Positions 5,943 to 44,853 are shown, numbered from the stretch's first letter. The stretch: 64,000 bases of DNA from an uncultured delta proteobacterium (GCA_963763745.1 CAVXQJ010000016.1:321029-385028), one strand, 5' to 3'. Notes: generated by a model not told the origin, from the letters alone. Program-made: numbers and translations.

Positions 5943-5982
5943 GCGTTGGATCGTAGGTACGAAATGCCGCTACGCCAACAGG

Positions 5983-21100: not shown

Positions 21101-21877
21101 GCGCGCGGTCGCGTGAATCAAGCGTACGCATTCCGAGCAAACATTCGCGGAGAGCTCGAAGAGACGATGCACCGATACACCGCGAGCACGCGCGCGTTCG
21201 AAGCGGCCGGCGATCTTCGCACCGCGTGCGTGCAGGAGCTCAACGCGGCCGCGGCGCTCTGCGAGCTCGGGCGCGACGACGAAGCGCGTACGCGCCTCGA
21301 CCGCGGAGCACGCGAAGCCGACGCGCGAGGTCTCCTCTCCGCCGTCGCGCTCGCGCACCACCTCGGTGGAATCCTGCTCGCGCGCGAGGGCCGCATCGAC
21401 GAAGCCATCGCGGAGCAGCTCCGCGCGATCGAGACGTTCACCGCGCAAGGCAACGCGCGCATGGAGGGAGGCGTCCGGTGTCATCACGCCGAGCTCTTGC
21501 TCAAAGAGAGGAGGCTCGACGAAGCGCTCGCCGAAGCAAAGCGCTCCTGCGATTTGCTCGCGGCGGTCGCGCCGGCGCGCGCACGCTCGCTCGCGGTGCT
21601 CGCGCTCGTTCACATCGCGCGCGGCGACACGCCCGCGGCGCTCGACGCATCGAAGGAAGCGCTCGCGCTCGCCGAGACCGCGGGCGTCGAATCCGGCGAG
21701 GCCATCGTCTACGCCGCGCGCGCCGACGCGCTCACGCTCGCCGGCTCCGCCGAAGCCGCCACCGTGCGCGAAACCGGGCGAAAAAAGCTCCTCGCGCGCG
21801 CGGGCACGATCGCCGACGCGTCGCTCAAGAAGAGCTTCCTCGCCGTCCCGGAGAACGCGCGCCTCCTCACATCTTGA
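18146..21877 (+). CDS. Multidomain Ser/Thr kinase fused to an AAA/STAND-type ATPase with C-terminal TPR repeats (1243 aa)
   Basis: The kinase domain has GEGGMGEVYRA, HRDVTPANV, DFG and GYAAPE. The P-loop is VWVTGPPGIGKTR. A long TPR-like tail follows. The frame is continuous for 3.7 kb. Confidence 0.85.
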   Translation: MTKKNGDVVGARFVIESLAGEGGMGEVYRAKDRERGADVALKIFRTRARANEQEARTLLELVHPNIVRCVAFGTTDEGSDFLATEWLDGETLRARLARGAVPMTQTIRIARRVAEGLAAAHAWGITHRDVTPANVMLLPDGQVKLLDFGLAVHGREGGAAGTVGYAAPEQARGDPLTPRADVFSLGCVIYECLLGEKPFAAETDVAVIARMLEGDTARVTARLTGVPSALVRLVARMLASDPEARPHGAAAVASELAVLEAREGQKSEPAATISTTDKGPSAFPSSRSVTDAEARASQALVAETAAAGSARLNAELEALGAAVTRAGSRVVCVWQTETSAVERAVRGARAALAVLRSDAHARVALAASTSASIAESSAIEALPEAPSIRIDADTARLLGDRFVIRPDGDELVLLREGASPHSRTSLLGHETRCVGRDREIGLIVSTFEECRDEPDARVVWVTGPPGIGKTRVRDEVITRIVSGDAPPRVWSAQADPTRAGVALGVLGDLVRSAAAIVEGDDARHEHASLESRACARVNAIDKPRVVEFLSELLRIPIADPSPQLKVAREEPLLMGDQVRRAFEDLVLAELAAGSLAIVVEDLQWADAASVRALSDVARAARERPLFILLLGRPEAKDTLLRLVADRQPTGVALGKLGTKAMEKLVASALAGADGQAIDAELVASIATRAGGNPFFAEELVRATATGAAPMAALAMLESRLTSLEPEARRVLRAASVFGQQFVSSDVAVLLGDDGQGASVEFVDAWCAWLAEREVLSQSAGVWSFRHALVRDTAYSMLTDADRKTAHALAAELLERSQRAPGPVIADHFARAGEPERASRWLASSATDALEANDLSACVDLGERAIAEAATGDWRGELLVVLAEAHRWRGEFERSAACSREAIDLLPEGSARFFRAVAELAAATGTAGPPDQFELALAKLATLPHDDAKGAASTACSRAAMHLIVRGDPRGDVLLARADASADSNLARGRVNQAYAFRANIRGELEETMHRYTASTRAFEAAGDLRTACVQELNAAAALCELGRDDEARTRLDRGAREADARGLLSAVALAHHLGGILLAREGRIDEAIAEQLRAIETFTAQGNARMEGGVRCHHAELLLKERRLDEALAEAKRSCDLLAAVAPARARSLAVLALVHIARGDTPAALDASKEALALAETAGVESGEAIVYAARADALTLAGSAEAATVRETGRKKLLARAGTIADASLKKSFLAVPENARLLTS

Positions 21878-21914: not shown

Positions 21915-22812
21915 ATGCAGTCGGTTGCGTCCGCCCGAAGAGTCGCGTCCCCACGCGTTTTGGCGCGCGACGTGCTCGCGCTCGCGAAGCCGCGCATCAC
22001 GTCGATGGTGCTTCTCACGGCGGCCGGCGGCCTGTGGCTGGCACCGGGTCACGCGTCGCGCACGGCGACCGTGTGCGCGCTCCTCGGCACCGCGCTCATC
22101 GTGAGCGGCGCGAACGCGCTCAACATGTTCATCGAGCGCGACATCGACGGCTTCATGAAGCGCACGAAGGATCGCCCGCTCCCGGCGGGTCGCATGCCCG
22201 CGCGCTTCGCGCTCGTGTTCGGCGTCGCGCTGTCGGTGCTCGCGGTTCCGATCCTCGCGCTCGGCGTCAACGCGCTCGACGGCGCTCCTCGCGGTCCTCG
22301 CGAACCTTCTCTACGTGCTCGCGTACACGCCGCTCAAGCAGCGCTCGCACTGGGCGCTTCAGGTCGGCGCGGTGCCCGGCGCGATCCCTCCGCTCCTCGG
22401 TTGGACGGCAGCGACGGGACGCGTCGACGCGGCGGGCTCGTCCTCTTCGCGATCCTGTTTTTCTGGCAGATCGCCGCATTTTCACGCGATCGCGCTCTTC
22501 CGAAAGCTCGAGTACGGACGCGCGGGCCTCGTCGTTCTTCCGAATGTCGAAGGAGACGAATCCGCGCGTCACAGCATCGTGCGCCACGCGAGCGCGCTCG
22601 CCGCGGTGAGCCTGCTCCTCTATCCGCTGCACGTCGCGCACGGGATTTACGTCGCGTCCGCGCTCGCGCTCGGCGCTTCGTTCATCGCCGTCTCGCTCCT
22701 CGGCATTCGCAAAACGGTCAGCCCGCGCTGGTCGCGCCGCGTCTTCGGAGCCTCGCTCGTGTATCTCGTAGGTCTCTTCGCAGCGATCGCCGCCGACGCG
22801 ATTTGCTCATGA
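21915..22812 (+). pseudogene. ctaB: Protoheme IX farnesyltransferase (heme O synthase), with three frame changes
   Basis: The protein is split across ORFs 21915..(frame 0) and 22315..22812 (frame 1). Recognisable pieces are [90 protein letters not shown](PHF)HAIALFRKLEY. The frame changes are a +1 event near 22280 (ctcGacggcg), a -1 event near 22440 (gggg to ggg) and a +1 event near 22478 (atcGccgcat). Confidence 0.8.
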
Positions 22813-23228
22813 CCCCTTGGCGCCTTGGCGCCTTGGCGATCTTTCTCTTCGCCTGCGAGACGCGCATGCCCGATTTCCACGGCGTCGCGCTCGGCATGGC
22901 CCCACGCGACGTGCGCGATCGCTTCGACGTGAAAGGCGCGTTCGACGTCGAGCCCTCGGCCGACGATTTCAAAATGCGATTTTCCCCCGAGACGAAGGCG
23001 ACGGTCACGACGGCGCAGTTCGAGTTCCACATGGGCGCGCTCGTCGCGATCCGCGCCGACATCGCGCCGAGCGATCCATTCGCGCGCGGCGAGGACACCG
23101 TCGTCACGAAAGCGATCGTCCTTCATCGCGCGCGCTCGCCCGAGTCGGTGCACATCGACGAGCTCGCGCGCGATTGCCCCTCGCATCACGCCGAGGCGGA
23201 GAAGCTCGTCGCGCCATCGGCGCGATGA
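22809..23228 (+). CDS. Small putative lipoprotein
   Basis: The ATG overlaps the ctaB stop (ATGA). MTPWRLGALAIFLFAC-E is followed by a protein-like 139 aa. Confidence 0.4.
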   Translation: MTPWRLGALAIFLFACETRMPDFHGVALGMAPRDVRDRFDVKGAFDVEPSADDFKMRFSPETKATVTTAQFEFHMGALVAIRADIAPSDPFARGEDTVVTKAIVLHRARSPESVHIDELARDCPSHHAEAEKLVAPSAR

Positions 23229-23268
23229 GCTCAGGTCGTCCCGGAGCGGCGTCAGCCGCGACGAGGAG

Positions 23269-23843
23269 CTAGTGCACTGACGGTCCGAGGATCACGCCGA
23301 GCCGCAATCCCGCCGTGAAACGCACGACGTCCCACTCGAGCGCCGTGCTCTTCGCGATGAGCTGAAGCGGATAAAAATCCGGACCGAATTCGACGCCGGC
23401 CAAGAAGCGCTGCCAAAAACGAAACGAGACGATGGCCGAGAGCGAGACCATCCCGAGCCACTGCGTCTGCGTGCTCCCGGCGGTCTCGGTGAACACGGTG
23501 ACGCTCTCGAGCGCGGCGGCGCCGCCGATCCAAACGTGCTCCTTCGCGAGCGCCGATCCGATCGCGAGACCAAAACCGCCCCGCACCGAATCGATCGTCG
23601 CACCCGCATCGCCCGGCCCGAGCGACCAGCCGAGCCGCACGAAAGGCTGAAGAGCTCGTCCACGAGCCATACCGCGGCCATCGCGTACACGCCGAAGTCG
23701 CCGTCCAGCGGATCGCGCAGCCCGAACGAGTTTCTCCCGCCCGCGCCAACCCAACCGCGAAGCGGCCCATCATCGTCGGCGCGAGCGCTCGCGGAGACGA
23801 GAATCGAGGCGAAGACGATCATCCGCGCGGCGCGCACAACCAT
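23269..23843 (-). pseudogene. Small outer-membrane beta-barrel-like protein, frameshifted near 23650
   Basis: The signal peptide (MIVFASILVSASARA) and N-terminal strands are in ORF 23292..23975. The remainder (PFVRLGWSLGPGDAG...RFTAGLRLGVILGPSVH) is in ORF 23269..23754. The junction between the two frames sits at ELFSL/QPFVRLGW. Confidence 0.45.
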
Positions 23844-24037
23844 CGCGTGTACCACGAAACCTTTTCGCGCTTTCGCGTGCGCGGACGATCTCGCGAATCT
23901 CTCTTGTGCGGTAAGCCCTGCGTCCCCTATAAGGACCGCGCGAACGAGCGTTTGGATCGCGCGCGCGCGATTCATCGAGCACCGTCATTCGTCGGGGCGG
24001 CGTGCTCGAGAGCGACGCTGTCGCAACGAGCCTCTCG

Positions 24038-24667
24038 ATGCAAATTTTCCCCCGAGCTCTGAACAAGCTGCCGCTCTACGGCGCCGTTGGCAGTCTATTC
24101 GCGATGACCGCGGTCGTCGGAGTGTTTTGGTATTACTTCTCGCCGAAGAACCTCCAGGTCGGGTACGCGCCGAAGCAACCGGTGCCGTACAGCCATCGCC
24201 TCCATGCGGGGCAAATGGGCATCGACTGCCGCTACTGCCACGCGCAGGTCGAGCGCGCCGCACACGCGATGATCCCGCCGACGCAAACGTGCATGGGGTG
24301 TCACGCGGTCGTGAAGACCGACAGCGCGATGCTCGCGCCCGTCCGCGAGAGCTGGGAGACCGGCGAGCCGGTGCAGTGGGTCAAGGTCCACAAGCTCCCC
24401 GAGCACACCTACTTCAATCACAGCGTGCACCTCGCGGTCGGCGTCGGCTGCGCAACGTGCCACGGTCGCATCGATCAAATGGACGTCGTGCGTCTCGATA
24501 AACCGATCGCGATGCAGTGGTGCCTCGAGTGCCACAGAAACCCGACACCGAACCTTCGCCCGAAGGATCAGATCACCAACATGAGCTGGACGCCCGAACA
24601 AGCGCCCGCCGGCTGGAAACCGCCGGAAGTGCATCCCCCCACGAACTGCAGCGGGTGCCACCGATGA
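24038..24667 (+). CDS. actA: Alternative Complex III subunit ActA (pentaheme cytochrome c)
   Basis: There are five CxxCH motifs (CRYCH, CMGCH, CATCH, CLECH, CSGCH) and an N-terminal TM anchor. The start may instead be at 24002. Confidence 0.85.
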   Translation: MQIFPRALNKLPLYGAVGSLFAMTAVVGVFWYYFSPKNLQVGYAPKQPVPYSHRLHAGQMGIDCRYCHAQVERAAHAMIPPTQTCMGCHAVVKTDSAMLAPVRESWETGEPVQWVKVHKLPEHTYFNHSVHLAVGVGCATCHGRIDQMDVVRLDKPIAMQWCLECHRNPTPNLRPKDQITNMSWTPEQAPAGWKPPEVHPPTNCSGCHR

Positions 24668-27600
24668 GCAAGCGGCAACCGTTTCCCCAGGAAGAGATCT
24701 CCCCGAACGCGAAAGCGATCTGGAAGAGCCTCGACGAAAAGCGCGATCCCGCGGCGGCAAAAGAGGAAGCGAAGAAAGAGTTCTTCGCGCCGATCCAGCT
24801 TTCGCGACGCGGTCTCTTCGGGTTCGGCGCGGCGACCGCTGCGCTCGCAACCTCGGGATGCCTTCGCCGTCCCGTCGAGCACATTTATCCGTACACGAAG
24901 GCGCCGGAGTACGTGATCCCCGGCGTCGCCGATCACTACGCGACGATTCTCCCGCGTCGCGGCGAAGTCGTCGGCGTGCTCGTCGAGAGCCACGAAGGCC
25001 GCCCGACGAAGGTCGAAGGCAACGAAGAACATCCGACGTCGCTCGGCGGCGCCGACTCGCTGCTCCAAGCCGCGACGATGGATCTCTACGACGCCGATCG
25101 CTCGACCGACGTCCGCGAAAAAGGAAAAAAGAGCGACTGGGCCGCGTTCGACAAAGCGTTCGCCGCGATCCTGAAGACGCTCCAAACGGACGGCGGGTCG
25201 AAGCTCCGCGTGCTCGTGCGTCCGTCGCAATCGCCGACGATGCTGCGCCTTCGCACGCTCGCATCGGAGAAGTTCCCGCACGCGCGCGTTCACATGTACG
25301 CGCCCGTCGCGGAGTCGAACGTCCGCGAAGGCGGGCGCATCGCGTTCGGAACGCAAGTCGTCCCGCGATACAACTACGCCTTCGCCAAAGCGATCGTCGC
25401 GCTCGACGCCGACGTGCTCCACACGGAGCAAGGCTCGATTCACGCGACGAAGGGCTTCGTGCGCGGTCGCAAGATCGAGCGCGCGAGCGATCCGATGAGC
25501 CGCTTGTACGTCGTCGAGCCGACGCTCACTGTGACGGGCGCGAACGCCGACGAGCGCTTGCGTCTCCCCGCCGCGCACGTCGACGCGTTCGCGCGCGCGC
25601 TCGCAGCGGAGCTCGCGGACAAAGGCATCGATCTCGGTCCGATCAAGGACTCGGTCGCTGGCGCGAAGGCGCCGGAAGGATCCGAAGCGTTCCTCAAAGC
25701 CGCCGCGGCGGATCTCGTCGCGAACAAAGGCAAAGGCGTGCTCGCCGCGGGTCGCCGTCAACCGGCGCACGTCCACGCGCTCGTTCACGCGATGAACACC
25801 GCGCTCGAGAACGTTGGTCGCACGGCGAGCTACGCGCCCGTCGTCGACGTGACGGAGCCGGCGGATCTCGCGGGCGATCTCAAAGCGCTCGCCGACGACA
25901 TCGACGCAGGCAACAAAGTCGACGTCCTCCTCATCCTCGGCGGAAACCCCGTCTACGACGCGCCCGGCGACATCAAGCTCGCCGCGAAGATCGACACGAT
26001 CCCGACGACGATCCACCTCTCCTCGCACTTCGACGAGACGAGCGAGCACTGCACGTGGCACATCCCGCTCGCGCACGAGCTCGAGAGCTGGGGCGATGGC
26101 CGCGCGTTCGACGGCACGTGGTCGATCCAGCAGCCGCTCATCGCGCCGCTCCACGACGGTCGCTCGATCATCGAAATCTTCGCGAACCTCACCGACGAAG
26201 CTCCGCACGGTCACGAGCTCGTCCGCGCGACGTTCCGCGAGCGCGCAGCGACTCCATCGCGCTTCGAAGGCGCGTGGAAGACGGCGCTCCGTCTCGGCCT
26301 CGACTCCGGCTCGAACTCGATTCAGTTCGAAGCGCACGCGACGCTCACCGACGTCGCCGCCGCGATCACGAAGGTCCCGCTCGGCAAGCCCATCGGCGCG
26401 CAGAACATGGAGCTCGCGATCGCGCCGTGCAACAAGCTCCACGACGGCGCATCGGGCAACAACCCGTGGCTGCTCGAAGTGCCCGATCCGATCACGAAGA
26501 TCGTCTGGGACAACGCCGCGCTCTTCTCGCCCGCAACCGCGAAGGCGCTCGGCATCGACGGCGGCGACATCGTTTCGATCGCGCGCGAGGGCTCACAGAC
26601 GATCGAAGTCGTCGCGTGGGTCCAACCCGGTCAAGCCGACAACTCGATCGCGCTCTCGCTCGGTTGGGGCCGCCAGAACGCGGGCCGCTACGGCAACACG
26701 CGCGGCTTCAACGTGAACCCCGTGCGCTCGTCCAAGTCGATGGACATGCTCGACGGCGCGCGCGTCTCGAAGACCGGCAAGATCTACAAGGTCGTCCAGA
26801 CGCAAGATCACGATCGCATGGAAGGCCGCCCGCTCGCGATCGACGCGACGCTCGACGAGTTCAAATCGAACCCCGCGTTCGTCCTCTTCCCGAGCACGTC
26901 GCGCAAAGACGAGGTCGTCACCGGTCCGCTCCACCGCGAGCTCGAGCGACCGGGCTCGCCCACGCCGAAGGCGCAACCGCTTTGGGACCGCGTGAAATAC
27001 GAGGGCCACAAGTGGGGCATGACGATCGACCTCAACGCGTGCACCGGTTGCAACGCGTGCGTCGTCGCGTGCATCGCCGAGAACAACATCGCGTTCGTCG
27101 GCAAGGAACAAGTCTTCCGCGGCCGCGAGATGCACTGGATCCGCATCGACCGCTACTTCGTCGGCGACAGCGAAGACGACCCGGAGGTCGCGTTCCAACC
27201 CGTCGCGTGCGTGCAGTGCGAAGAAGCGCCGTGCGAAAACGTCTGCCCCGTCAACGCGACGATCCACAGCGACGAAGGCCTCAACGACATGGCCTACAAC
27301 CGCTGCATCGGCACGCGCTACTGCGCGAACAACTGCCCGTACAAAGTCCGCCGCTTCAACTTCCTCGAGTGGCGCGGCCCCGAAGGCGCGCAGCAGCGCG
27401 TCCAAGATTTGTACGACAACATCCCCGAGACCGAGAAGCTCGCGTTCAACCCGAACGTCACGGTGCGCATGCGCGGCGTGATGGAGAAATGCACGTACTG
27501 CGTGCAGCGCATCGAAGAAGCCAAGATCGGCGCGCGCCGCGAGACTCGCGCGATCTTGCCGAACGAGATCAAGACCGCCTGCCAGCAAACCTGCCCGGCT

Positions 27601-27813
27601 GACGCGATCACCTTCGGCGATCTCAACAACCCGAAGGCGGAAGTGACGCGCCTCCAGCGCAGCGAGCGCGGCTACGCGCTCCTCGCCGTCCTCGGCACGC
27701 ACCCGCGCACGACGCACCTCGGAAAGATCCGAAACCCGAGCCCAGCACTCCACAAACCGAAGGTCGCCGATCAGAAACACGAAGGCGGAAGCTCGGGGGA
27801 GGCGCCGAAATGA
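24664..27813 (+). CDS. actB: Alternative Complex III subunit ActB (molybdopterin-oxidoreductase-like domain fused to an Fe-S domain)
   Basis: Tat signal [19 protein letters not shown]. There are three Cys-rich Fe-S motifs ([37 protein letters not shown]). It is 1049 aa and its ATG overlaps the actA stop. Confidence 0.9.
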
Positions 27814-29253
27814 GCAACCGCAACCTGCCCATCAAAGCCATCGGCGAGGTCTACCTCACGAAAGAGGGGATGACCTTCCACGAGATCTCGGACGTCGTAT
27901 GCGGCGTCACCGAGAAGAAGGCGCCACGCAACTGGTGGATCGCCTTCTTCATCGCGTCGACGTTCACCGGCATCCTCTTCTCGGCGATCGGTTACCTCTT
28001 CTGGCAAGGCGTCGGCGTCTGGGGAAACAACGCGCCCGTCTACTGGGCGTGGGACATCACGAACTTCGTCTGGTGGATCGGTATCGGTCACGCCGGCACG
28101 CTCATCAGCGCCGTCCTCTTCATCTTCCGCCAGAAGTGGCGCACGGCGATCAACCGCGCCGCGGAGGCGATGACGATCTTCGCCGTCATCTGCGCGCTCC
28201 TCTTCCCCGGCATCCACGTCGGCCGCGCGTGGTTTGCATACTACATGTTTCCGATCCCGAACCAGATGGCGATCTGGCCGAACTTCAAGAGCCCGCTCAT
28301 CTGGGACCTCTTCGCGGTCAGCACGTACTTCACGGTTTCGCTTTTGTTCTGGTACTCGGGCCTGATTCCGGACTTCGCGCTCCTGCGCGATCGCGCGATG
28401 GGCATGACGGGCCGCGTCGGCAAGGTCCGCCGCCTCGTCTACGGATCGCTCGCGCTCGGTTGGCGCGGATCGAACCGTCACTGGCAGAACTACGAGCGCA
28501 TGTACCTGATCCTCGCGGCCATCTCGACGCCGCTGGTTCTCTCGGTGCACAGCGTCGTCTCGTTCGACTTCGCGACGTCGGTCTTGCCGGGCTGGCACAC
28601 GACGATCTTCCCGCCGTACTTCGTCGCCGGCGCCATCTTCTCCGGCTTCGCGATGGTCATGACGCTCATGCTCGTGACGCGCGCCGTCTACGGCATGAAG
28701 AGCGTCATCACGATGCGCCACCTCGAGCTGATGAACAAGATCATCATGCTCACCGGTTCGCTCGTTGGTTACGCGTACGCGATGGAGTTCTTCATCGCCG
28801 GGTACTCGGGCAACGAGTACGAGCGCTACGTCTTCATGAACCGCGCCTTCGGCCCGTACGCGTGGGCGTACTGGACGATGATCACGTGCAACGTGATCAT
28901 CCCGCAAGCGTTCTGGTTCAAGAAGGCGCGCACGAGCATCCCGATCATGTTCGCGATCTCGATCACCGTGAACATCGGCATGTGGTTCGAGCGCTTCGTC
29001 ATCATCGTGACGTCGCTGCATCGTGACTTCCTGCCGTCGTCGTGGGGTTACTTCCGCCCGACGCATCATCGACATGTGCACGTACACGGGCACGCTCGGG
29101 TTGTTCTTCACGTGCTTCCTCCTCTTCATCCGCTGGGTCCCGATGATCGCGATCGCAGAAGTGAAGGGTGTTCTCCCGGCAGCGGATCCCCACGCAAGCG
29201 ACGAAGAGCACGCACCGGCACACGCGGAGGCAGCGGCGTCGCCCGCGGAATGA
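27810..29253 (+). CDS. actC: Alternative Complex III subunit ActC (NrfD-like membrane subunit), with one +1 frameshift near 29065
   Basis: About 417 aa of polytopic membrane protein are in frame 0. The C-terminal about 60 aa ([35 protein letters not shown]...) are in ORF 29023..29253. The join is at acgCatcatc. Confidence 0.8.
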
Positions 29254-29831
29254 TCATGGCGAAGCGTCGAATTGCTCTCTACTTGGCGAAGTACGACACG
29301 ACGGCCGACGTGCTGCACGCGGCGGAAAAAGTCCGCAAAGCGGGCTACACGAAGTTCGACGCGCACACGCCGTTCCCCATACACGGCATGGACGACGCGA
29401 TGGGCCTGCCCGACAGCAAGGTCGGTTGGATCGTCTTCTTCGGCGGTCTCACCGGCATCTCGTGCGCGTACTTGATGATGTGGTGGATGGGCGGCGTCGA
29501 CTACCCGCTCGTCATCGGCGGCAAGCCCGGCTTCACGCTTCCGTCGAGCGTCCCGATCATGTTCGAGCTGATGGTGCTTATCTCGGCCTTCGGCGCGCTC
29601 TTCGGCATGCTCCACTTGAACCGCCTCCCGCGCCATCACCACCCGGTGTTCGAGTCGGAGACGTTCCGCGAGGCGTCGGACGACAAGTTCTTCATTTCGA
29701 TCGAAGCGGAAGATCCGAAGTTCGATCTCTCCGAAACGAAAGCGGTGCTCGAGTCGACGCACCCCGCGCACCTCGAGCTCGTCGAGGAGCCCGTCGAGGA
29801 AGAAAAAGAAGAAGAGGAGCATCACGCATGA
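29250..29831 (+). CDS. actD: Alternative Complex III subunit ActD
   Basis: [17 protein letters not shown]...two TM helices, then an acidic tail. Its position is conserved between actC and actE. ATGA overlaps occur at both ends. Confidence 0.75.
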
Positions 29832-30412
29832 GAACGACGATGCTGCTCATGAGCGCGCTCGCGCTCGCTGCGTGTCGCGGTCAGACGTCGGAAGACCCGC
29901 CGATCGTCCCGATCCGCAACATGTACGACCAACCGAAGTACGAGATGCAACAGGCCGGTGAGTTCTTCTCGGACAACCGCGCGATGCGCCCGCAGGTCGA
30001 AGGCACGATCTCGCGCGAGCAAGAGATCGACCCGCGCATCGCGCACGGTCGTCTCGAAGACGAAACGGGCTACGTGCTCAACATCCCGCAAGAGGCGATC
30101 GACAAGTTCGGCGGAATGGATCGCACGCTCGCGCGCGGACAAGACCGCTTCGGGATTTATTGCACGGCGTGCCACGGGCTCGACGGCTCGGGGCAGGGGA
30201 TGGTCGTCAAGCACGGCTTCGTGCAACCGCCGACGTACCACTCCGATCGCCTCCGCCACGTCCCCGACGGTCAGATCTACGCGACGATCGAGAACGGTCT
30301 TCGCAACATGCCCGCCTACGGCCCGCAAATTCCGACGTTCGATCGCTGGGCGATCGTCGCGTACGTGCGCGCCCTCCAACTGAGCCAGCAGAGCGCGGAG
30401 AAGAAGCCGTGA
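29828..30412 (+). CDS. actE: Alternative Complex III subunit ActE (monoheme cytochrome c lipoprotein)
   Basis: Lipobox LALAAC-R and a single CTACH heme motif in 194 aa. Confidence 0.8.
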
Positions 30413-32085
30413 CCGACGAGAAAGATCCCAAAGAGGAATCTTCGAAGTCCGAGGAAAAATCGGAGGAGCCGAAGGCTGCCGCCGAGACGAAGGCGTCCGA
30501 CGAAAAGAAGGCCGACGAAAAGAAGGCCGACGAAAAGAAGGCCGACACGAAGAAGGCCTCTGACGAGAAGAAGCCCGAAGAGAAAAAAGAAAAGAAGAAG
30601 AAGGCCGAGAAGGATCCCGCCGACGCGTTCCGCATTCCCGCAAGCCACCCCGTGGCGAGCGTTTGGAAGACGTGCGCCGGATTCGGGCTCGCCGGAACCA
30701 TCGGCGCGGGCTACTCCTACTACGCGCAAGACCACACGCGCTTCGCGTATGCGTGGCTCTTCGGGTTCATCTGCGCGCTCACGCTCGCGATCGGCTCGAT
30801 GATGTTCGTGATGATGCATCACCTCTCGAACGGGAACTGGGGCATCGTCGTGCGCCGCGTCGCGGAGATCTTCGGCGCGTCGTCGTGGGTGCTCATCATC
30901 CTCGTGATCCCCGTGCTCCTCATGCGCGGAACGCTCTTCGGCGAGTGGTTGAAGGGCGAGTCGCATCAAGCGAAAGAACATGCGGCCCTCGAGCCGCAAG
31001 TCGACCCGCACGATTACGAGCTCGCGTCGAACGACTTCCAGTTCCAACCGCACGGGGGCCTCGGTGGGCCCGGTCGCGGCGGCCCGCCGCGCGGGAACCC
31101 GCACGGACCAGGCGGCGGACCCGGCATGCCACCCGGTGACTTTCACGGTCACTCGGGCGTCGGCACCGGTCCGATGTCGGGCACGCCGATCCACGTTCAA
31201 GTGGGCCGCGGCCCCGAGGAGCGCGCCGATCACGTCGAGCACGAAGAGGTGATGAAGGCGAAGAGCTGGTACTTGAACCAGACGTTCTTCTTCGCGCGCC
31301 TCATCGCGTACTTCATCATCTGGTACGCGGTCGGCTTCACGCTCCTCAAGTGGTCGACGGATCAGGACAAGACGAAAGACCTCCGCTTGACGGTGAAGCT
31401 CGCGCGCTTCTCAGCGCCGGGCATCGTGCTGATGGTGCTGACGCTCACGTTCGCCGCGTTCGACTGGATCATGGCGCTCGATCCAACGTGGTACTCGACG
31501 ATCTTCGGCGTGACGTTCTTCGCCGGCTCGATGGTGTGCGTCTTCGCGACGCTCATTCTCGTCTTCCTCGGTTTCCGCAGCAACGGCTTGCTCGTGAAGG
31601 AAGTGACGGTCGAGCACTACCACGACCTCGGCAAGCTCCTCTTCGGCTTCATGTGCTTCTGGGCGTACGTCTGCTTCTCGCAGTTCATGCTCATCTGGTA
31701 CGCGAGCATCCCCGAAGAGGTGACCTTCTATCACCACCGCTGGGACGGCGGGATGTGGAAGAACGTGAGCCTCGCGCTCGTCGGGCTCCACTTCATGTTG
31801 CCGTTCGTCTTCATCATGTCGCGCAACGTGAAGCGCAACCTCGGCATGTTGCGCTTGGGCGCCACGCTGCTGCTGACGATGCACATCATCGACATCTACT
31901 GGCTCATCATGCCGAACGTTCCGCACCAGGGCTCGAACTTCACGCTGGCCTTCGTCGACGTGTGCGGATTCTTCGGACCCGTCGGCATCTTCCTCGCCGT
32001 CGCGTTCCGTCGCATGACCGAATACCCGATCCTTCCGGTCGGCGATCCACGGCTCCAACGCTCCGTTCACTTCGTCAACGCATAG
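30409..32085 (+). CDS. actF: Alternative Complex III subunit ActF (NrfD-like), with an unusual Lys/Glu-rich N-terminal extension and a Gly/Pro-rich loop
   Basis: GTG start overlapping the actE stop (GTGA). There are about 90 aa of KKADEKKADEKKAD low complexity, then a polytopic membrane core (WYASIPEE, TFYHHRW). Confidence 0.8.
   Translation: MTDEKDPKEESSKSEEKSEEPKAAAETKASDEKKADEKKADEKKADTKKASDEKKPEEKKEKKKKAEKDPADAFRIPASHPVASVWKTCAGFGLAGTIGAGYSYYAQDHTRFAYAWLFGFICALTLAIGSMMFVMMHHLSNGNWGIVVRRVAEIFGASSWVLIILVIPVLLMRGTLFGEWLKGESHQAKEHAALEPQVDPHDYELASNDFQFQPHGGLGGPGRGGPPRGNPHGPGGGPGMPPGDFHGHSGVGTGPMSGTPIHVQVGRGPEERADHVEHEEVMKAKSWYLNQTFFFARLIAYFIIWYAVGFTLLKWSTDQDKTKDLRLTVKLARFSAPGIVLMVLTLTFAAFDWIMALDPTWYSTIFGVTFFAGSMVCVFATLILVFLGFRSNGLLVKEVTVEHYHDLGKLLFGFMCFWAYVCFSQFMLIWYASIPEEVTFYHHRWDGGMWKNVSLALVGLHFMLPFVFIMSRNVKRNLGMLRLGATLLLTMHIIDIYWLIMPNVPHQGSNFTLAFVDVCGFFGPVGIFLAVAFRRMTEYPILPVGDPRLQRSVHFVNA
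30499..30552 (+). repeat. Three tandem 18-nt repeats (gacgaaaagaaggccgac) encoding DEKKAD units
   Basis: Perfect triplication inside the actF 5' region. It is locally AT-richer than the rest of the genome. Confidence 0.8.
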
Positions 32086-32091
32086 GTTCCC

Positions 32092-32595
32092 ATGGCTTCC
32101 GAAGACACACGGCCCAAAGTCCGCATGCTGCTCACGATCGGCATCGTGTCGGTGTCGCTGCTCGTGGGCATCAAGTTCGTGCTCGACAGCTACTACCTCG
32201 ACATGGTCGAAAACTACGAGCACGGCCTCTTGCCGAAGACGGAGCTCCTCGACAAGACGCGCACGGATCAACACGCCGCGCTCGACAAGGGCGAGAACGG
32301 AAACATCCCGGTGAGCGTCGCGATGCAAACGCTCGCATCGAAGGGACGCGACAACGCCGACCCGCTCATCACGGCGCAACCCTCCGATGACATCGAGCCG
32401 CTCAAAGGTTGGACGAAGCTCCAACACCAAGTTCACCTCCCTCCACAAGTGACGACGATCGCGCCGCCTCCTCCGCAAGCACCGCTCGGCGACGCGGGCG
32501 CGACCACCGCGACGGACGCGGGCGCACCGCCGAAAGACGCGGGCGCTCCACACGTGATCCAACACCTCGACGCGACGAAAGACGGAGGCAAGTAG
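32092..32595 (+). CDS. Small membrane-anchored protein (possible ActG-like accessory subunit)
   Basis: One N-terminal TM helix (MLLTIGIVSVSLLVGIKFVL) and a Pro/Ala-rich tail. It sits between actF and sco1. Confidence 0.45.
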   Translation: MASEDTRPKVRMLLTIGIVSVSLLVGIKFVLDSYYLDMVENYEHGLLPKTELLDKTRTDQHAALDKGENGNIPVSVAMQTLASKGRDNADPLITAQPSDDIEPLKGWTKLQHQVHLPPQVTTIAPPPPQAPLGDAGATTATDAGAPPKDAGAPHVIQHLDATKDGGK

Positions 32596-32597
32596 CA

Positions 32598-33458
32598 GTG
32601 AGCCTCCGCGTCGTCCTCGTCGTGCTTCTTGCGCTTCTCGCGACCACACCGGCGTTCGCTCAATACGCGGGCGCGACGGGCGGTCAAGAGACCCCGCAAG
32701 CCGTGCTCGATGACGTCGGCGTGAGCGAGCAGCTCGACGGCCAAGTCCCGCTCGACGCGATCTTCAAAGACGAACAAGGCAAGATGGTTCGCTTCGGCGA
32801 CTTCGTCGACGGCAAACGGCCCGTCGTGCTCGTCCTCGCGTACCACTCGTGCAAGACGCTTTGCTCGTTCGTGCAGAACGCGGTGCTCGACTCGCTCAAG
32901 GCGATTCGGTGGACCGTCGGCAACGAGTTCGAGGTCGTCACGCTGAGCATCGACGCGCGCGACACCGTCGCCATCGCGAACGGCAAGAAGAACGAAACGA
33001 TGACGTCGTACGCGCGCGAAGGCGCGTCGCGCGGCTGGCACTTCCTCACGGGCGACGATCAAAACGTCCACCGCGTCTCGGACGCCGTCGGTTGGAAGTT
33101 CCACAAAGACATCGACGGCGAGATCGCCCACCCAGCCGCGGTGATGCTCCTCAAGCCGAACGGACGCGTCGCGCGATACCTCTACGGCATCGAGTTCGCG
33201 CCGAACGACATGAGCCTCGGTCTGCTCGAAGCGTCCGAGGGCCACAACATCACGACGATCGATCGCATCAAGCTCTATTGCTACCACTACGACCCGCACC
33301 AGCGGAAATACGCGCTGCTCGCGACGCACGTGATGGAGATCGGCGGCGGGCTGACCGTGCTGCTCCTCGCCGCGTTCATCGGCGGCATGTGGCTCAAGGA
33401 GCGGCGCAGCAAGAAGACGACGGACGTTTCACCTCGCATCGCGGAACAGACGCCATGA
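32598..33458 (+). CDS. sco1: SCO1/SenC copper chaperone (thioredoxin-like, for CuA assembly)
   Basis: GTG start, a signal/TM segment, a CxxxC motif (YHSCKTLC) and conserved His in a thioredoxin-like fold. ATGA overlap with coxB. Confidence 0.75.
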   Translation: MSLRVVLVVLLALLATTPAFAQYAGATGGQETPQAVLDDVGVSEQLDGQVPLDAIFKDEQGKMVRFGDFVDGKRPVVLVLAYHSCKTLCSFVQNAVLDSLKAIRWTVGNEFEVVTLSIDARDTVAIANGKKNETMTSYAREGASRGWHFLTGDDQNVHRVSDAVGWKFHKDIDGEIAHPAAVMLLKPNGRVARYLYGIEFAPNDMSLGLLEASEGHNITTIDRIKLYCYHYDPHQRKYALLATHVMEIGGGLTVLLLAAFIGGMWLKERRSKKTTDVSPRIAEQTP

Positions 33459-34465
33459 TTCACCACCTTCTCACTCCACCGCCTGCAGCCTTCGATCTCC
33501 CGCCGGCCATCGCCGCCGAATCGGGTGAGGTCGATTGGCTGTACAACATGATTTATTACGTCAGCGTCTTCTTCACGGTGATCATCACCGGGCTGATGCT
33601 GTACTGGGTGCGCATCTACAAGCGGAAGCCCGGCGACAAGCGCATGGACACGCCGCACTTCCCGCGCCTCGAGATTTTCTGGACGGTCGTCCCGATCTTC
33701 TTCGTCATCTTCTTGTTCCACGCGGGCTTCAAGGCGTTCATGAAGCAAGCGATCGCGGCGCCCGATGCGCTCGAGATTCGCGTGCGCGGACAGAAGTGGT
33801 TCTGGACGTTCACGTATCCGAACGGTCGCCAAGAGAACAACCACTTGTATTTGCCGGTCGGCAAGCAAGTGAAGTTCGTCATCTCCGCCGCCGACGTGCT
33901 CCACTCGTTCTACGTCCCCGGCGCGCGCGTGAAGAAGGACGCGGTCCCCGGCATGTTCACGACGATGGTGTTCACGCCGACCTCGCTCGGCGACACACCC
34001 GTCTACTGCGCGGAGTACTGCGGCGCGCCCATCGGTTATCCGGAGCCCGCGCTCGATGGCGCGCCCCACGGCGGACACTCCGCGATGATGGCGATGATCC
34101 ACGTCGTCTCGCAGGAAGAGTTCGACAAGATGCTGCGCGAGGGCCCGAAGAAACCCGAAGGCATGAGCGACGCGGATTGGGGCAAGAAGCTCTACAAGGA
34201 GAACGCGTGCTTGACGTGTCACTCCGTCGACGGCAGCAAAGGCACCGGTCCGACGTGGAAGGGCATGTTCGGCAAACCCGTCGAGCTCAACGCCGCGCTG
34301 TCGGGCGGCATGGGAAGCACGACGGCCGATGAGGCCTACGTCCACGAGTCGATCGCGAAACCGCAAGCGAAGGTCGTGCTCGGCTTCAACCCCGTCATGC
34401 CGCCGTATCAGCTGTCGAACAAGCAGGTCGACGCGATCATCGAGTACATGAAGTCCTTGCAGTAG
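33455..34465 (+). CDS. coxB: Cytochrome c oxidase subunit II with a fused C-terminal cytochrome c domain (caa3-type)
   Basis: Two TM helices. CuA site H...CAEYCG...H..M. C-terminal CLTCHS heme c domain. Confidence 0.9.
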
Positions 34466-34482
34466 AAGAGGCGAGATTACCC

Positions 34483-36135
<1,653 letters not shown>

Positions 36136-36137
36136 CC

Positions 36138-36902
36138 ATGACTGAAGCGGCAGCGGAACACGACGAACACGAGCACGCCGGGGAGGAGCACCACGGCGAT
36201 CATCCCAAGTGGCTGCAACACCACTGGGACACGCCCGCGCAGCAATTCGACGCGGCGAAGATCGGCATGTGGGCGTTCCTCGGGCAGGAGCTGCTCTTCT
36301 TCAGCGGGCTCTTCGTCGCCTACGCGATTTTCCGCACGTGGTACGGCGCGGCGTTCGCGGCGGGCTCGCACGAGCTCAATCGCACGATGGGCGCGGCGAA
36401 CACGTGCGTTCTCCTCTTCTCCAGCTTGACCGCGGCGCTCGGCGTCCGTTCGTCGCAGCTCGGCAAGAAGAACGAGACGTCGATGTGGATCGTCCTCACG
36501 ATCGCGTGCGCGTTCATCTTCTTGGTCGTGAAGTACTTCGAGTACCACGCGAAGTTCGAGCACGGCCTCTTGCCGGGGTCGTTCTTCGGCACGCCGCGCG
36601 ACATGCTCACGTTCCAGCCGCTCGTCGGGCACCACTCGCCCGCCGAGGAGCTGCCGGATCACACGCACGTCTACTTCTCGCTGTACTTCATCATGACGGG
36701 CATCCACGCGCTCCACGTCATCATCGGAATCGGCGTGTGGATCTGGATCCTGAAGCGCAACCTCCGCGGCGATTTCTCGAAGCGGTATTTCACTCCGGTC
36801 GACGTGACGGCGCTCTACTGGCACCTCGTCGACCTCGTGTGGATCTACCTCTTCCCGCTGATGTACCTCATCGACTACGTGCCGCCTGGCCACAAGGGCT
36901 GA
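36138..36902 (+). CDS. coxC: Cytochrome c oxidase subunit III
   Basis: 254 aa, polytopic. The C-terminal helices are typical of subunit III (HVIIGIGVWIW, LYWHLVDLVWI). Confidence 0.85.
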   Translation: MTEAAAEHDEHEHAGEEHHGDHPKWLQHHWDTPAQQFDAAKIGMWAFLGQELLFFSGLFVAYAIFRTWYGAAFAAGSHELNRTMGAANTCVLLFSSLTAALGVRSSQLGKKNETSMWIVLTIACAFIFLVVKYFEYHAKFEHGLLPGSFFGTPRDMLTFQPLVGHHSPAEELPDHTHVYFSLYFIMTGIHALHVIIGIGVWIWILKRNLRGDFSKRYFTPVDVTALYWHLVDLVWIYLFPLMYLIDYVPPGHKG

Positions 36903-36907
36903 CCGCC

Positions 36908-37483
36908 ATGACCGAAGAAGAAAAAGAGCACGAAGAGCACGAGGAAGAGGGTCACGATCACGATCATGATCATGATCACGACCATGATCACGATCCATAC
37001 GATCACGATCACGATCACGGCGAAGAAGGGCCCTACGGCGCGGACGAAGTGCACGCGCACATCGGGTCGTACAAGCTTTATGGCGCCGTCTTCGTCGCGC
37101 TGATCTTCTGCACGCTCCTCACCGTGGGCGTCGCGGCGATTCACCTCGGCAAGGCGAACCTCGCGGTCGCCGTCATCATCGCGTCGATCAAAGCGGCGCT
37201 CGTCTGCACGTTCTTCATGCACTTGAAGGACGACAACAAGTTCAACTCGCTCATCCTCATCGCGGCGGTCACGTTCATCGGCGTCTTCTTCGCGCTCACG
37301 CTGAACGACGTGAGCTATCGCGAGAAGCTCGACACGCAGAGCGGCAATCGCGTGTTCCTCCAGTCGGGCGACTCCGCGCCCGGAAGCTGGGAGAACCCCG
37401 TGAAGAAGGAAGAGAAAAAGGAAGAAGCCGCGCCGGCTCCGGCTGGAAGCGGCAGCGCTGCGCCGGCCCCAAAGCACGAGTGA
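36908..37483 (+). CDS. coxD: Cytochrome c oxidase subunit IV (prokaryotic caa3 small subunit) with a (His-Asp)n N-terminal repeat
   Basis: HIGSYKLYGAVFVALIFCTLLTVGVA matches the CoxIV-like helices. The N-terminus has GHDHDHDHDHDHDHDPYDHDHDHG. Confidence 0.7.
   Translation: MTEEEKEHEEHEEEGHDHDHDHDHDHDHDPYDHDHDHGEEGPYGADEVHAHIGSYKLYGAVFVALIFCTLLTVGVAAIHLGKANLAVAVIIASIKAALVCTFFMHLKDDNKFNSLILIAAVTFIGVFFALTLNDVSYREKLDTQSGNRVFLQSGDSAPGSWENPVKKEEKKEEAAPAPAGSGSAAPAPKHE
36945..37020 (+). repeat. Hexanucleotide (CAY-GAY)n microsatellite-like repeat encoding (His-Asp)n
   Basis: cacgatcacgatcatgatcatgatcacgaccatgatcacgatccatacgatcacgatcacgatcac within coxD. Confidence 0.8.
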
Positions 37484-37536
37484 GCTCGGCCGTGGAAAGC
37501 TGCGTCGTCACGGGGCGCGTCTGATAGCGTGAAACG

Positions 37537-38358
37537 ATGCGGCCTCGATCGGTCACGATCGTGCTGGGGGCATCCATGGCGGCGTGTGGTCTTTTTCCGG
37601 ATCTCTCCGGGCTGACGACGAGCAGCGATGCGAGCGCGACGGACGCGCCGAGCGAGAGCGCTCCGCCGAACGATGCGCCGGGCGTGGATGGGCCAATCGA
37701 CGCGAGTTGCCCGACGATTTCGCGCGTGCAAGTCGCGACGAACCCGGGCTCGTCGGAGAACCAAGACGTCAGCGTCACGATGAGCCTCACGGCTGGGCAC
37801 CTCGTCGTCGCGCTGCTCGGCGCGCAGTTCCTCGGCACGATCTCGCTGTCCGACAGCGCCAATACGCCATGGACGCTCCTCGACGAGATCGACAACTACA
37901 CCTGCGTCACCGACGCGGCGCCGTGGGGCTCGCGCGCTCGCATCGCCTACGCGACGGTCCCGACGAACGTGACGAACGACGTCATCAAGCTCTCGACGAA
38001 CGGCTCGCCGGACTACCTCACGATCACCGTCGCAGAGTACGCGGTCAGCGCCGGCAAGCTCGCGTTCACGACTTCGAACGCCAGCAGCGCGACCTCTTCG
38101 TCGAGCACCATCACGCTCCCATCACTCTCCACGACGGGCTGCACGAACCTCGTCGTCGCGATGATCGCCGACGAGTACCCCGGCAACGACAACTGGACGC
38201 CGCTCTCGGGTTTCGACACGCTCTCCGTCAACGGCGGATGGTCGTTCGTCACGATCGAGGACCTCGCGGCTCCGCCGAGCTCGGTCGTGGCTGGCGCGAC
38301 GCACCCCTCTGCGGAAGCCTGCTGGGTGACCGCCGGCGCGTCGTTCGCCGCGCAGTGA
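37537..38358 (+). CDS. Lipoprotein of unknown function
   Basis: Lipobox LGASMAAC-G and a Ser/Thr-rich 273 aa. Confidence 0.5.
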   Translation: MRPRSVTIVLGASMAACGLFPDLSGLTTSSDASATDAPSESAPPNDAPGVDGPIDASCPTISRVQVATNPGSSENQDVSVTMSLTAGHLVVALLGAQFLGTISLSDSANTPWTLLDEIDNYTCVTDAAPWGSRARIAYATVPTNVTNDVIKLSTNGSPDYLTITVAEYAVSAGKLAFTTSNASSATSSSSTITLPSLSTTGCTNLVVAMIADEYPGNDNWTPLSGFDTLSVNGGWSFVTIEDLAAPPSSVVAGATHPSAEACWVTAGASFAAQ

Positions 38359-38383
38359 CTGCCATCGGGTATGATGCCGCGCC

Positions 38384-38797
38384 ATGCGATTGGCTCTCCT
38401 TATGTCGTGCCTGATGCTTGCATTCTGCAATGAAAACAAGCCTGAAAATACGGCGAATCCGAAGGCGTCCGTCTCGGCGAAGGCGACCGCCACGGCGCCG
38501 CAGTCGCCCGCGGACGAAGCGAAGTCGCTCGCGCAGGTGCGCTGCGGAATGTGCCACGGAGCGGCGGGCAAGGGCGACGGGCCGAGCGCGGCGACGCTCA
38601 ACCCGAAGCCGCGCGATCTCACGAACAAGGAGTGGCAGAAGTCCGTGAGCGACGCGCAGATTCACGCGGTGATCGTCCAAGGCGGACCCGCGGCGGGAAA
38701 GAGCCAGCTCATGCCGCCGAATCCGGATCTGGCGGACAAACCCGCGGTCGTCGACGAGCTCGTGAAGATCGTCCGCGGCTGGGGCGGAGGAGCGTAG
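38384..38797 (+). CDS. Class I c-type cytochrome lipoprotein (probable electron donor to caa3)
   Basis: Lipobox LMLAFC-N, one CGMCHG heme site, and a Met ligand region (QLMPPNP). Confidence 0.75.
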   Translation: MRLALLMSCLMLAFCNENKPENTANPKASVSAKATATAPQSPADEAKSLAQVRCGMCHGAAGKGDGPSAATLNPKPRDLTNKEWQKSVSDAQIHAVIVQGGPAAGKSQLMPPNPDLADKPAVVDELVKIVRGWGGGA

Positions 38798-38799
38798 TC

Positions 38800-40635
38800 A
38801 TGAATCGAACGCTTCAAGATCTCAACGCGCGCTACCTCGCCGCGCACGTCGCGAAGGAAGACGCATTCTGGGCGCAGAAGATGGGGCACCACGCGTACGT
38901 CGAAGGCACGTTCGAGAAGGCCGAGATCGAGCTCCGCGATTTGACGAGCGACGATGCGTGGCTCGTCAAGGTGCGCGGCGAGCTCGGTCGCGGCGATCTC
39001 GACAAAGACGATCGCGTCGGGCTCGAAGGGTGGAAGCTCTTCTTCGAAGCGAACGTCATCGAGAAGGACGAAGCGAAACGCATCGCGAACGATCTCATCG
39101 TGAAGGAGGGCGCGCTCGAGCGCTCGCGCGCGATGATGAAGCTCGGCTACGGCGATCCGAAGAGCGGCGCACGCGTCGATTCGGACTACTTGAAGCTCGC
39201 GCTCGAGATCCGCACGAACGAAGACGAAGGCATCCGCCGCGCCGCGCACGCGGGGATGAAAGAGATCGAGACGCACGTCCTCGAGAACGGCTTCCTCGAG
39301 ATCCTCCGCGCGCGAAACAGGCTCGGGCGCATGCTCGGCTACGAGGACTACTACGATTACAAAGTCTCGCGGAACGAAGGCTTCGGAAAGAAGAAGCTCT
39401 TCGCGATGCTCGATGAGCTCGAGCGCGGCACGCGCGACGCGGCGAAGCGCGCCATCGCGGGCCTCCAAAAAGAAAAAGGCGACGGCGCCGACGCGGCGCA
39501 CAACTTCGGGTTCTTCACGTCGGGCTCGCTGACGGCGCAGCTCGATCCGTATTTCGGGTTCGAGTCGGCGGTCCCGCGCTGGGGTCGTTCGTTCATGCGG
39601 CTCGGCATTCGCTACCACGGCGCGGAGCTCACGCTCGATCTCATCTCGCGCACCGGAAAATACGAAAACGGTTTCATGCACGGACCCTTTCCGGGCTTCG
39701 TCGATCGCGGGACGTATCGGCCGTCGCGGATCAACTTCACGTCGCTCGGCACGCCCGGACAAATCGGCGCGGGGTACGTCGCGCTCCAGACTTTGTTCCA
39801 CGAGGGCGGGCACGCCGCGCACTTCTCGAACATCTTCATGCCCGCTCCGTGTTTCTCGCAGGAGTTCGCGCCGACGTCCGTCGCGTATGCGGAGACGCAA
39901 TCGATGTTCCTGGACAGCCTCGTCAGCGACGTCGACTGGCGCGCGCGCTACGCGAAGGACAAGAACGGCGGCGCGATGCCGCGCGCGCTCCTCGACGAAG
40001 CCGTGTCGCGCAAGCAACGCTACGCGGCGAACAACGTCCGGCAGCTCCTCGTCGTTCCATACGTCGAGCGCATGCTCTACGAGCTCGCGGACTCGGAGCT
40101 CGATGCTCGAACGATCTTGCGACGCACGCGCGAGATCGAACGCGATCTCTTGTTCCTCACCGAGAATCCGCGGCCGACGCTCTCGATTCCGCACCTCATC
40201 TCGGGCGAGAGCTCGGCGTATTACCACGGCTACGTCCTCGCGGAGATGGCCGTGCAGCAGACGCGCGCGTTCTTCTCGAAGCGCGACGGTCACCTCATGG
40301 ACAACCCGCGCATCGGTCCCGATCTCGCGAAGCACTACTGGAACCCGGGAAATTCCCGCACGTTCCTCTCGCTCGTCGAGGATCTCACCGGCGCGCCGTT
40401 CTCGGCGGCGGCGCTCGTTCAGGATTCGAATCGCGACGTCGGCGAGGCGCTCGCGGACGCGGAGCGCGCGCTCGCACGCGAGAAGGACATTCCCAAGACG
40501 GACGAGCCGATCGATCTCGACGCGCGCATCTCGCTCGTCCACGGCGACGAGGTCATCGCGACGAATCGCAACGGCGAGTCGTTCGATTCGCTCTCGTCGC
40601 AGTTCGCGACTTGGCTAACGCGCGCCGCGGGGTAA
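38800..40635 (+). CDS. M3-family-like zinc metallopeptidase (oligoendopeptidase-like)
   Basis: 611 aa with HEGGHAAH (HExxH) and downstream Glu. There is no signal peptide. It starts 3 nt after the cytochrome c stop. Confidence 0.6.
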   Translation: MNRTLQDLNARYLAAHVAKEDAFWAQKMGHHAYVEGTFEKAEIELRDLTSDDAWLVKVRGELGRGDLDKDDRVGLEGWKLFFEANVIEKDEAKRIANDLIVKEGALERSRAMMKLGYGDPKSGARVDSDYLKLALEIRTNEDEGIRRAAHAGMKEIETHVLENGFLEILRARNRLGRMLGYEDYYDYKVSRNEGFGKKKLFAMLDELERGTRDAAKRAIAGLQKEKGDGADAAHNFGFFTSGSLTAQLDPYFGFESAVPRWGRSFMRLGIRYHGAELTLDLISRTGKYENGFMHGPFPGFVDRGTYRPSRINFTSLGTPGQIGAGYVALQTLFHEGGHAAHFSNIFMPAPCFSQEFAPTSVAYAETQSMFLDSLVSDVDWRARYAKDKNGGAMPRALLDEAVSRKQRYAANNVRQLLVVPYVERMLYELADSELDARTILRRTREIERDLLFLTENPRPTLSIPHLISGESSAYYHGYVLAEMAVQQTRAFFSKRDGHLMDNPRIGPDLAKHYWNPGNSRTFLSLVEDLTGAPFSAAALVQDSNRDVGEALADAERALAREKDIPKTDEPIDLDARISLVHGDEVIATNRNGESFDSLSSQFATWLTRAAG

Positions 40636-43426: not shown

Positions 43427-43482
43427 CCCAACGCGGCACACGCGCGTCGCGTGGTTTCGCGCAGTTGAGAGCGGCACCTGGT

Positions 43483-44841: not shown

Positions 44842-44853
44842 CAAACTTCCTCG

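Follow-up and report, generated by a model that had tools for sequence, protein, structure and literature searches.

We analysed a stretch of 64,000 nt, hereafter the window, from a contig of an uncultured delta proteobacterium (GCA_963763745.1, CAVXQJ010000016.1:321029-385028), and within it the respiratory gene cluster at positions 21915-38797. The named respiratory genes of this region are all on the plus strand: ctaB for the heme O synthase, actA to actF of alternative complex III (ACIII), a small open reading frame (ORF) that we call orf167, sco1, the oxidase genes coxB, coxA, coxC and coxD, and finally a cytochrome c gene. Two lipoprotein genes, lipoS and lipoL, accompany them. Very probably, the region encodes the aerobic respiratory module that is usual in Polyangia-like Myxococcota, a reading in which the act genes are preceded by a promoter of their own and the frameshifts of the cluster are artefacts. 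The ORF lists were noisy at the 62-72% G+C of the window, and the gene map was drawn from third-position GC frame plots, Viterbi segmentation with a codon-usage model, three-frame reading and profile searches. For the gene order 80 related GTDB loci were fetched; the loci and contigs of relatives are given below with L numbers and homologous proteins with P numbers.

The six genes of ACIII follow each other closely. The product of actA (24038..24667, +) is a pentaheme cytochrome c with five CXXCH motifs and an N-terminal transmembrane (TM) helix, and it matches 6F0K_A over its full length (residues 2-208, E=2.9e-73). ActB (24664..27813, +) combines a molybdopterin-like B1 domain with a four-cluster iron-sulphur (Fe-S) B2 domain (8K9E_B, E=6e-246; 6F0K_B, E=5e-242; Pfam Fer4_7 and other Fer4 families) and carries the twin-arginine translocation (Tat) signal SRRGLF. 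ActC (27810..29253, +; 6F0K_C, E=1e-186) is an NrfD-like quinol-binding membrane subunit whose gene has an extra C at 29064, and it is followed by ActD (29256..29831, +, with an alternative start at 29250; PF11821, E=5e-66; 6F0K_D, E=4e-56). ActE (29828..30412, +; 6F0K_E, E=2e-48) is a monoheme lipoprotein cytochrome c with the lipobox LAAC and a single CXXCH motif, CTACH. Finally, ActF (30409..32085, +, GTG start) is NrfD/PsrC-like (6F0K_F, E=3e-63) and 78% identical to the ActF of L082; it is extended at its N-terminus by a K/E-rich part, contains a loop rich in Gly and Pro, and gave no Pfam or NCBIfam match. Tandem repeats at 30466-30612, in frame, give the K/E-rich, KADEK-like run at its N-terminus. 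Judged by profiles and solved structures, these genes encode an ACIII in which all the structural features of the subunits ActA-F are present.

Read literally, the actC frame does not stop before actD. It runs through to 29831 and gives a protein of 673 residues with an NrfD and an ActD domain, and this single open frame (27810-29831) could be taken as a natural fusion of the two subunits in this lineage. Such a fusion is scarcely credible, because the linker between the two domains is ActC sequence read out of frame. The match of the literal ActC to 6F0K_C ends at residue 419 of 484, and the 63 missing residues, which form the true C-terminus of ActC and are conserved in L001, L082 and 6F0K_C, are found in the +1 frame past the extra C. 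The third-position GC content also favours the +1 frame over 29001-29300. Furthermore, actC shows a one-base gap against L084, the repaired ActC is 94% identical, at full length, to the ActC of 481 residues in L082, and L001, L082 and L084 each have actC and actD as two distinct genes. With the linker out of frame and the genes separate in the relatives, we rejected the natural fusion. Most likely it is an indel artefact and ActD is a separate small membrane subunit.

Between actF and sco1 we found orf167 (32092..32595, +), which encodes 167 residues with one TM helix, the motif IPVSVAMQ and a Pro/Ala/Gly-rich tail. Nearly all the related loci have space for a small ORF between these two genes, and the small ORFs located after actF have in common one TM helix and a motif of the form ...Y..D...G...IPI..AM... 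The relationship of orf167 to ActG is transitive and runs through two profiles, one of the orf167 family with 4 members (A3) and the other of 14 small post-actF ORFs from other phyla (A2). A3 and A2 match each other with a probability of 96.9% (hhalign, E=1.8e-10), A2 matches the ActG chain of PDB entry 8K9E (8K9E_G, E=3.9e-9), and the hidden Markov model of A2 recognises orf167 directly (E=1.1e-4) as well as, in 57 of the 80 loci, an ORF that immediately follows actF. These matches support the assignment of orf167 as a divergent actG. What weighs against it is that the match of the A3 profile to ActG in the PDB was not significant. A direct PDB search with orf167 found no ActG, and orf167 gave no Pfam or NCBIfam match, the ActG-like family having no Pfam model. 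Earlier papers describe ActG as non-universal, and no actG homologue was reported in Melioribacter (PMC3534657).

The next gene, sco1/senC (32598..33458, +, GTG start), encodes the copper chaperone of the CuA centre (PF02630, 28.3 bits with a cut-off of 22.8). Its product has a CKTLC motif, a histidine around 88 residues further on (IAHPAAV) and a C-terminal TM helix; by its thioredoxin-like SCO1 domain, its CxxxC motif and its distal histidine, it is a Sco1/SenC protein. The gene coxB (33455..34465, +) encodes a subunit II of the caa3 type, to whose C-terminus a cytochrome c domain is fused. Three Pfam families, COX2, COX2_TM and Cytochrom_C, match CoxB, its single CXXCH is the heme motif CLTCH, and the best match, 2YEV_B (E=2e-35), spans the two domains and leaves a gap of 15 residues at the CuA loop. 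Subunit I of the A2 type, with the YSHPAV motif (residue 262), is encoded by coxA (34483..36135, +) and covers the whole of PF00115 (1-436/436, E=1.6e-154). It is followed by subunit III in coxC (36138..36902, +; PF00510) and by caa3 subunit IV, with a His/Asp-repeat N-terminus, in coxD (36908..37483, +; TIGR02229, 63.6 bits with a cut-off of 37.25). In coxD, a 6-nt unit in 11.8 copies (36952-37019, in frame) encodes the HDHDHD... run, and CoxC has a His/Glu-rich tail at its start. With the subunits I, II, III and IV all recognised by family and motif, the predicted enzyme is a caa3-type (A2) oxidase. The first-pass annotation of this DNA had named the same families, that is, ACIII A-F and G, Sco1, the caa3 subunits II, I, III and IV, the heme O synthase and a c-type cytochrome, and these assignments hold when the Act, Sco1 and COX families are checked with profiles and PDB structures. 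It had also placed the heme A synthase gene ctaA elsewhere, and actually we found no COX15/CtaA domain in any of the window ORFs scanned.

Regarding the CuA centre, all its ligand residues are kept in CoxB. Nevertheless, 17 residues and not 2 lie between Cys-Gly and His, and the loop reads CAEYCG-17 aa-HSAM (34025-34075, residues 191-207) instead of the canonical CxExCGxxHxxM. Insertions of 6-23 extra residues in the CuA loop were found in 66 of the 120 closest CoxB homologues, whereas the other homologues and most other phyla have the canonical two-residue spacing. Among the 80 loci, the spacing of 17 residues occurs in L001, L002, L005, L007, L010 and L011. When the literature was searched for such an insertion in myxobacteria, nothing relevant was found. 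If the loop altered the shape of the CuA site, or served as the docking surface of ActE or of the fused cytochrome c domain, the myxobacterial caa3 oxidases of this clade would have a structural variant of the CuA centre that has not been described, which is possible, if rather doubtful.

The cluster ends with a monoheme c-type cytochrome (38384..38797, +; Pfam Cytochrom_C, CGMCH), and a terminal cytochrome c after coxD is conserved in L001, L002, L084 and L085. This protein had been labelled as soluble; however, it has the lipobox LMLAFC, which predicts a membrane anchor. Between coxD and this gene is lipoL (37537..38358, +), a lineage-restricted lipoprotein of 273 residues which had been counted among the respiratory genes. 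We could not place it in any family, as it had no Pfam or NCBIfam match, and among 5.8 billion proteins it had only 3 homologues besides itself. The contigs of two of these homologues, P0244 and P0242, were looked up (L084 and L085, of the nearest relatives), and there too the gene is located between coxD and the cytochrome c gene; lipoL is not at that position in any of the 80 GTDB loci. It is a genus-level insert that belongs to the cluster solely in the closest relatives, and its respiratory label is unsupported.

At the other end of the region, ctaB (21915..22812, +), a heme O synthase gene of the UbiA family, is not an intact UbiA ORF of ~300 residues as given, its frame being broken three times. 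The Pfam UbiA match is split, with profile positions 1-90 in one frame and 90-247 in another, and in the three-frame reading the conserved segment LVLFAILFFWQI appears in a third arrangement. The DNA alignment to L081, a short-read contig that is 89% identical and has an intact ctaB, contains three 1-nt gaps, namely +1 at ~22275, -1 at ~22429 and +1 at 22474. After these three single-base repairs ctaB becomes an ORF of 298 codons whose product shares 93% identity with P0001, a protoheme IX farnesyltransferase homologue that is intact. The repaired gene and that of L081 differ at 14 sites in the first codon position, at 7 in the second and at 52 in the third; counted by codon, 48 changes are synonymous and 17 non-synonymous, and there is no further lesion. 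Programmed frameshifting in ctaB was rejected, as the three indels are of mixed sign within 200 nt and have no slippery context, and similar breaks are found in unrelated genes.

The frameshift noticed earlier in ctaB is indeed present, although there are three indels and they are best read as an assembly error. In all probability, the frameshifts of ctaB and actC are single-base assembly errors and not biological lesions. We prefer this to gene decay because similar indels hit unrelated genes in the window, and because the repaired ctaB is so close to its intact homologue, with mostly synonymous differences. Altogether there are at least 12 indels in the 64 kb, locally clustered, in genes that otherwise look selected. 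The gene nadA is split between two frames (4662-5969, -), extra bases are present at 52059 and 52101 in an OmpR-type response regulator (51604-52301, +), a Ser/Thr kinase (52913-53837, +) departs from the intact gene of L084 by five single-base indels, and frame breaks fragment another kinase (61858-63321, -). The short-read relatives L082 and L083 have the same synteny with an intact ctaB of 303 residues, an ActC of 481 residues and a separate ActD of 192 residues. Many more breaks of the same kind are found in L001 and L007, two contigs of related metagenome-assembled genomes, and the contig of the closest long relative is named in nanopore style (contig_30652_np1212). NCBI and ENA have a contig of 607 kb that encodes a CoxB 100% identical to that of the window. 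The source assembly is probably an error-prone, long-read one, a technology that we infer.

The alternative would be that the frameshifts are real and that ctaB and actC, and hence the ACIII-caa3 cluster, are being inactivated, with other oxidases or a second copy in use. The indels are, after all, present in the sequence as given. They are outside long homopolymers and they are clustered, three of them in one stretch of 200 nt in ctaB, which does not suit an assembly error well, and a real but very recent inactivation also has to be reckoned with on that side. However, single-base breaks also affect nadA, the response regulator and the two kinases, the 48 synonymous against 17 non-synonymous changes indicate strong purifying selection without any stop codon besides the indels, the identity to intact homologues is 93-94%, and all the other genes of the cluster are intact. 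We therefore regard inactivation as improbable and assembly error as the most probable explanation of both broken genes.

Downstream of ctaB is lipoS (22809..23228, +), which by its translation is a small lipoprotein of 139 residues with the lipobox LFAC. It had no Pfam or NCBIfam match, and a homologous ORF follows ctaB in L002, L006, L007, L009, L073, L081 and L082. Between lipoS and actA there is a gap of 809 nt (23229-24037). The codon-usage model gave a minus-strand coding signal across 23212-23978, and the ORF at 23269-23754 (-) has 44 homologues at E<=1e-3, mostly of 170-230 residues and aligned over the C-terminal ~125 residues; therefore, a real gene of the opposite strand is located in the gap (23269..~23846, -). 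It would encode a secreted protein of ~190 residues belonging to an uncharacterised family, and neither the ORF nor its homologues had a Pfam or NCBIfam match. The gene is frameshifted once, near 23655-23750, and is contained in a segment of ~540 nt that is absent from L081 and L082.

Closer to actA we found a conserved non-coding block (23853..23933, +). It consists of a palindrome, CACGAAACCTTTTCGCG, at 23853-23869 and of TTGTGC (23904-23909) followed, after 18 nt, by TATAAG (23928-23933), and these bases are invariant or nearly so across the window, L081, L082, L001 and the distant L002. In L001, which has neither lipoS nor the insert, the block is still present between ctaB and actA. Its conservation across genera suggests a putative act promoter with its operator, that is, a candidate promoter and regulator-binding site of the respiratory cluster, and because this upstream non-coding DNA is conserved across genera, we infer that actA heads its own transcription unit. 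Two points speak against the promoter: a strict sigma-70 scan of 21.5-41 kb called none, and the call is based solely on conservation and resemblance.

Regarding the junctions, overlaps of 4 nt were found at 6-7 of the 15 same-strand junctions, and the rest are gaps of 2-53 nt. The overlap is ATGA in ctaB/lipoS, actA/actB, actB/actC, actD/actE and sco1/coxB, and GTGA in actE/actF; the 2-nt gap of actC/actD turns into a further ATGA overlap if the ATG at 29250 is used. The gaps measure 6 nt in actF/actG, 17 nt in coxB/coxA, 2 nt in coxA/coxC, 5 nt in coxC/coxD, 53 nt in coxD/lipoL, 25 nt in lipoL/cytochrome c and 2 nt in cytochrome c/peptidase. The pair actG (orf167)/sco1 does not overlap: position 32592 is GTA, which is not a start codon, and with the start at GTG 32598 the two genes are separated by 2 nt. 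The tight coupling from act through sco1 to coxB is real, as the overlaps and short gaps can be read from the sequence. That most junctions overlap is true for the act part, but not for the cluster as a whole.

The first-pass annotation had concluded from this arrangement that there is one translationally coupled operon, headed by ctaB and extending through the cytochrome c gene. Several observations fit it: the respiratory genes are all on one strand, as had been said of a single co-directional run; the six or seven overlaps are complemented by otherwise short gaps from actA to coxD; no convincing intrinsic terminator separates the genes; and in L001 ctaB is a mere ~85 nt 5' of actA. Terminator-like hits were no more numerous than expected from shuffled sequence, and no plus-strand site was located in the gaps between respiratory genes, so that read-through from ctaB would be possible, which counts against actA as the head of its own unit. 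Nevertheless, we consider the single operon unlikely. The run that begins with ctaB and ends with cytochrome c is interrupted and has an internal promoter-like region, since the 809-nt gap contains a real minus-strand gene, and the promoter-like block with its palindrome before actA is kept even in L001, between ctaB and actA. In many other phyla ctaB is downstream of the cluster or opposite to it. At the 3'-side, lipoL is set off by gaps of 53 and 25 nt, and equally tight spacing runs on into the gene of an M3 peptidase, which is not respiratory. Furthermore, the plus-strand run exceeds the limits of the region, going from a histidine kinase/Ser/Thr kinase at 16692 to at least 47125, and therefore the strand alone does not delimit an operon. 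A separate unit beginning at actA remains our preferred arrangement.

The M3 peptidase gene (38800..40635, +; PF01432) starts 2 nt past the stop codon of the cytochrome c gene, and this adjacency is also found in L001, L084 and L085. Further downstream there are a DUF6851/VCPO-like gene (40646-43426) and three paralogous DUF2330 genes (43424-46197, +, and 48103-49674, -); L084 does not have this DUF2330/DUF6851 block between its M3 peptidase and its response regulator. Immediately 5' of ctaB, a histidine kinase and a Ser/Thr kinase of 1240 residues with AAA_16 and TPR domains occupy 16692-21877, with an ATGA overlap between the two. In both L082 and L083 this pair is positioned likewise, as is the Ser/Thr kinase in L001. 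The two proteins may be regulators of the respiratory cluster. Rfam and tRNA scans gave no matches anywhere in the window.

The arrangement had also been taken as complete and as a good natural model for a supercomplex. It is not unusually complete and is the common form of the cluster, as the order actA-F, (actG), sco1, coxB, coxA, coxC, (coxD) is found in ~60 of the 80 loci, in Myxococcota, Planctomycetota, Bdellovibrionota, Acidobacteriota and Ignavibacteria. A wider synteny, composed of the kinases, ctaB, lipoS, act, sco1, cox, cytochrome c and M3 peptidase genes, is common to the close relatives L082/L083 and L084. According to earlier literature, clusters of oxygen reductases often come after those of ACIII, and the association of ACIII with caa3 is both physical and functional (PMC5928083); the order actG, SCO1/SenC, cox in the Cr operon of Chloroflexus aurantiacus was called a 'respiratory superoperon' in 2011 (PMC3150298).

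Among the closest known systems is the ACIII of Rhodothermus marinus (6F0K), which has the same subunit set and whose chains are the best PDB matches of A, C, D, E and F. Both have a pentaheme ActA of ~210 residues with a TM anchor, a lipoprotein ActE and the Tat motif of ActB, and in both an A2-type (YS) caa3 oxidase, with cytochrome c fused to subunit II, is directly downstream (PMC5928083). The window differs from it in the K/E-rich N-terminal extension and the Gly/Pro loop of ActF, in having sco1 and the ActG-like gene between actF and coxB, and in the 15-residue insertion of the CuA loop. The Cr operon of C. aurantiacus has the same order actG-sco1-cox; however, it is listed with act B, E, A and G plus actKLM, whereas the window has the canonical actABCDEFG (PMC3150298). 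The ActG chain of its 8K9E structure is the only solved homologue of the small post-actF ORF family. The ACIII-aa3 supercomplex of Flavobacterium johnsoniae (6BTM) has homologous ActA-F and an oxidase that is linked physically and functionally, and in comparison with it the ActA of the window is short and its CoxB retains the cytochrome c domain. Finally, the caa3 oxidase of Thermus thermophilus (2YEV) is the best structural homologue of CoxB, with CuA and cytochrome c domains, although the Thermus CuA loop is the canonical CxExCGxxHxxM. In the Thermus enzyme, subunits I and III are one large membrane subunit, I/III (PMC5928083), whereas coxA and coxC are separate genes in the window.

By analogy with these homologues, ActA-G would oxidise menaquinol, and the electrons would pass from the Fe-S clusters of ActB to the hemes of ActA and ActE and then to the cytochrome c domain of CoxB. 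The route to the A2-type caa3 oxidase, CoxBACD, could be direct or could go through the anchored cytochrome c. Copper of the CuA centre would be loaded by Sco1 and heme O would be made by CtaB, with CtaA presumably encoded elsewhere. Transcription would most likely start at the conserved element before actA and cover actA-G, sco1, coxBACD, lipoL and the cytochrome c gene, and the transcript probably continues into the M3 peptidase gene. ctaB and lipoS would form a separate upstream unit, parted from actA by the opposite-strand gene.

Thus, the locus is best explained as an ordinary, well-conserved ACIII-Sco1-caa3 module whose oddities come from sequence errors. The apparent pseudogene and fusion of this assembly (ctaB and ActC-ActD) should therefore not be interpreted or propagated in annotation. 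For the uncultured Polyangia-like myxobacteria, a standard respiratory module is confirmed and there is little new biology in it. For specialists of the respiratory chain, two aspects are of interest: the variable insertion in the CuA loop of the myxobacterial CoxB, and the widespread ActG-like genes, which follow actF far more commonly than the literature implies and yet have no Pfam model.

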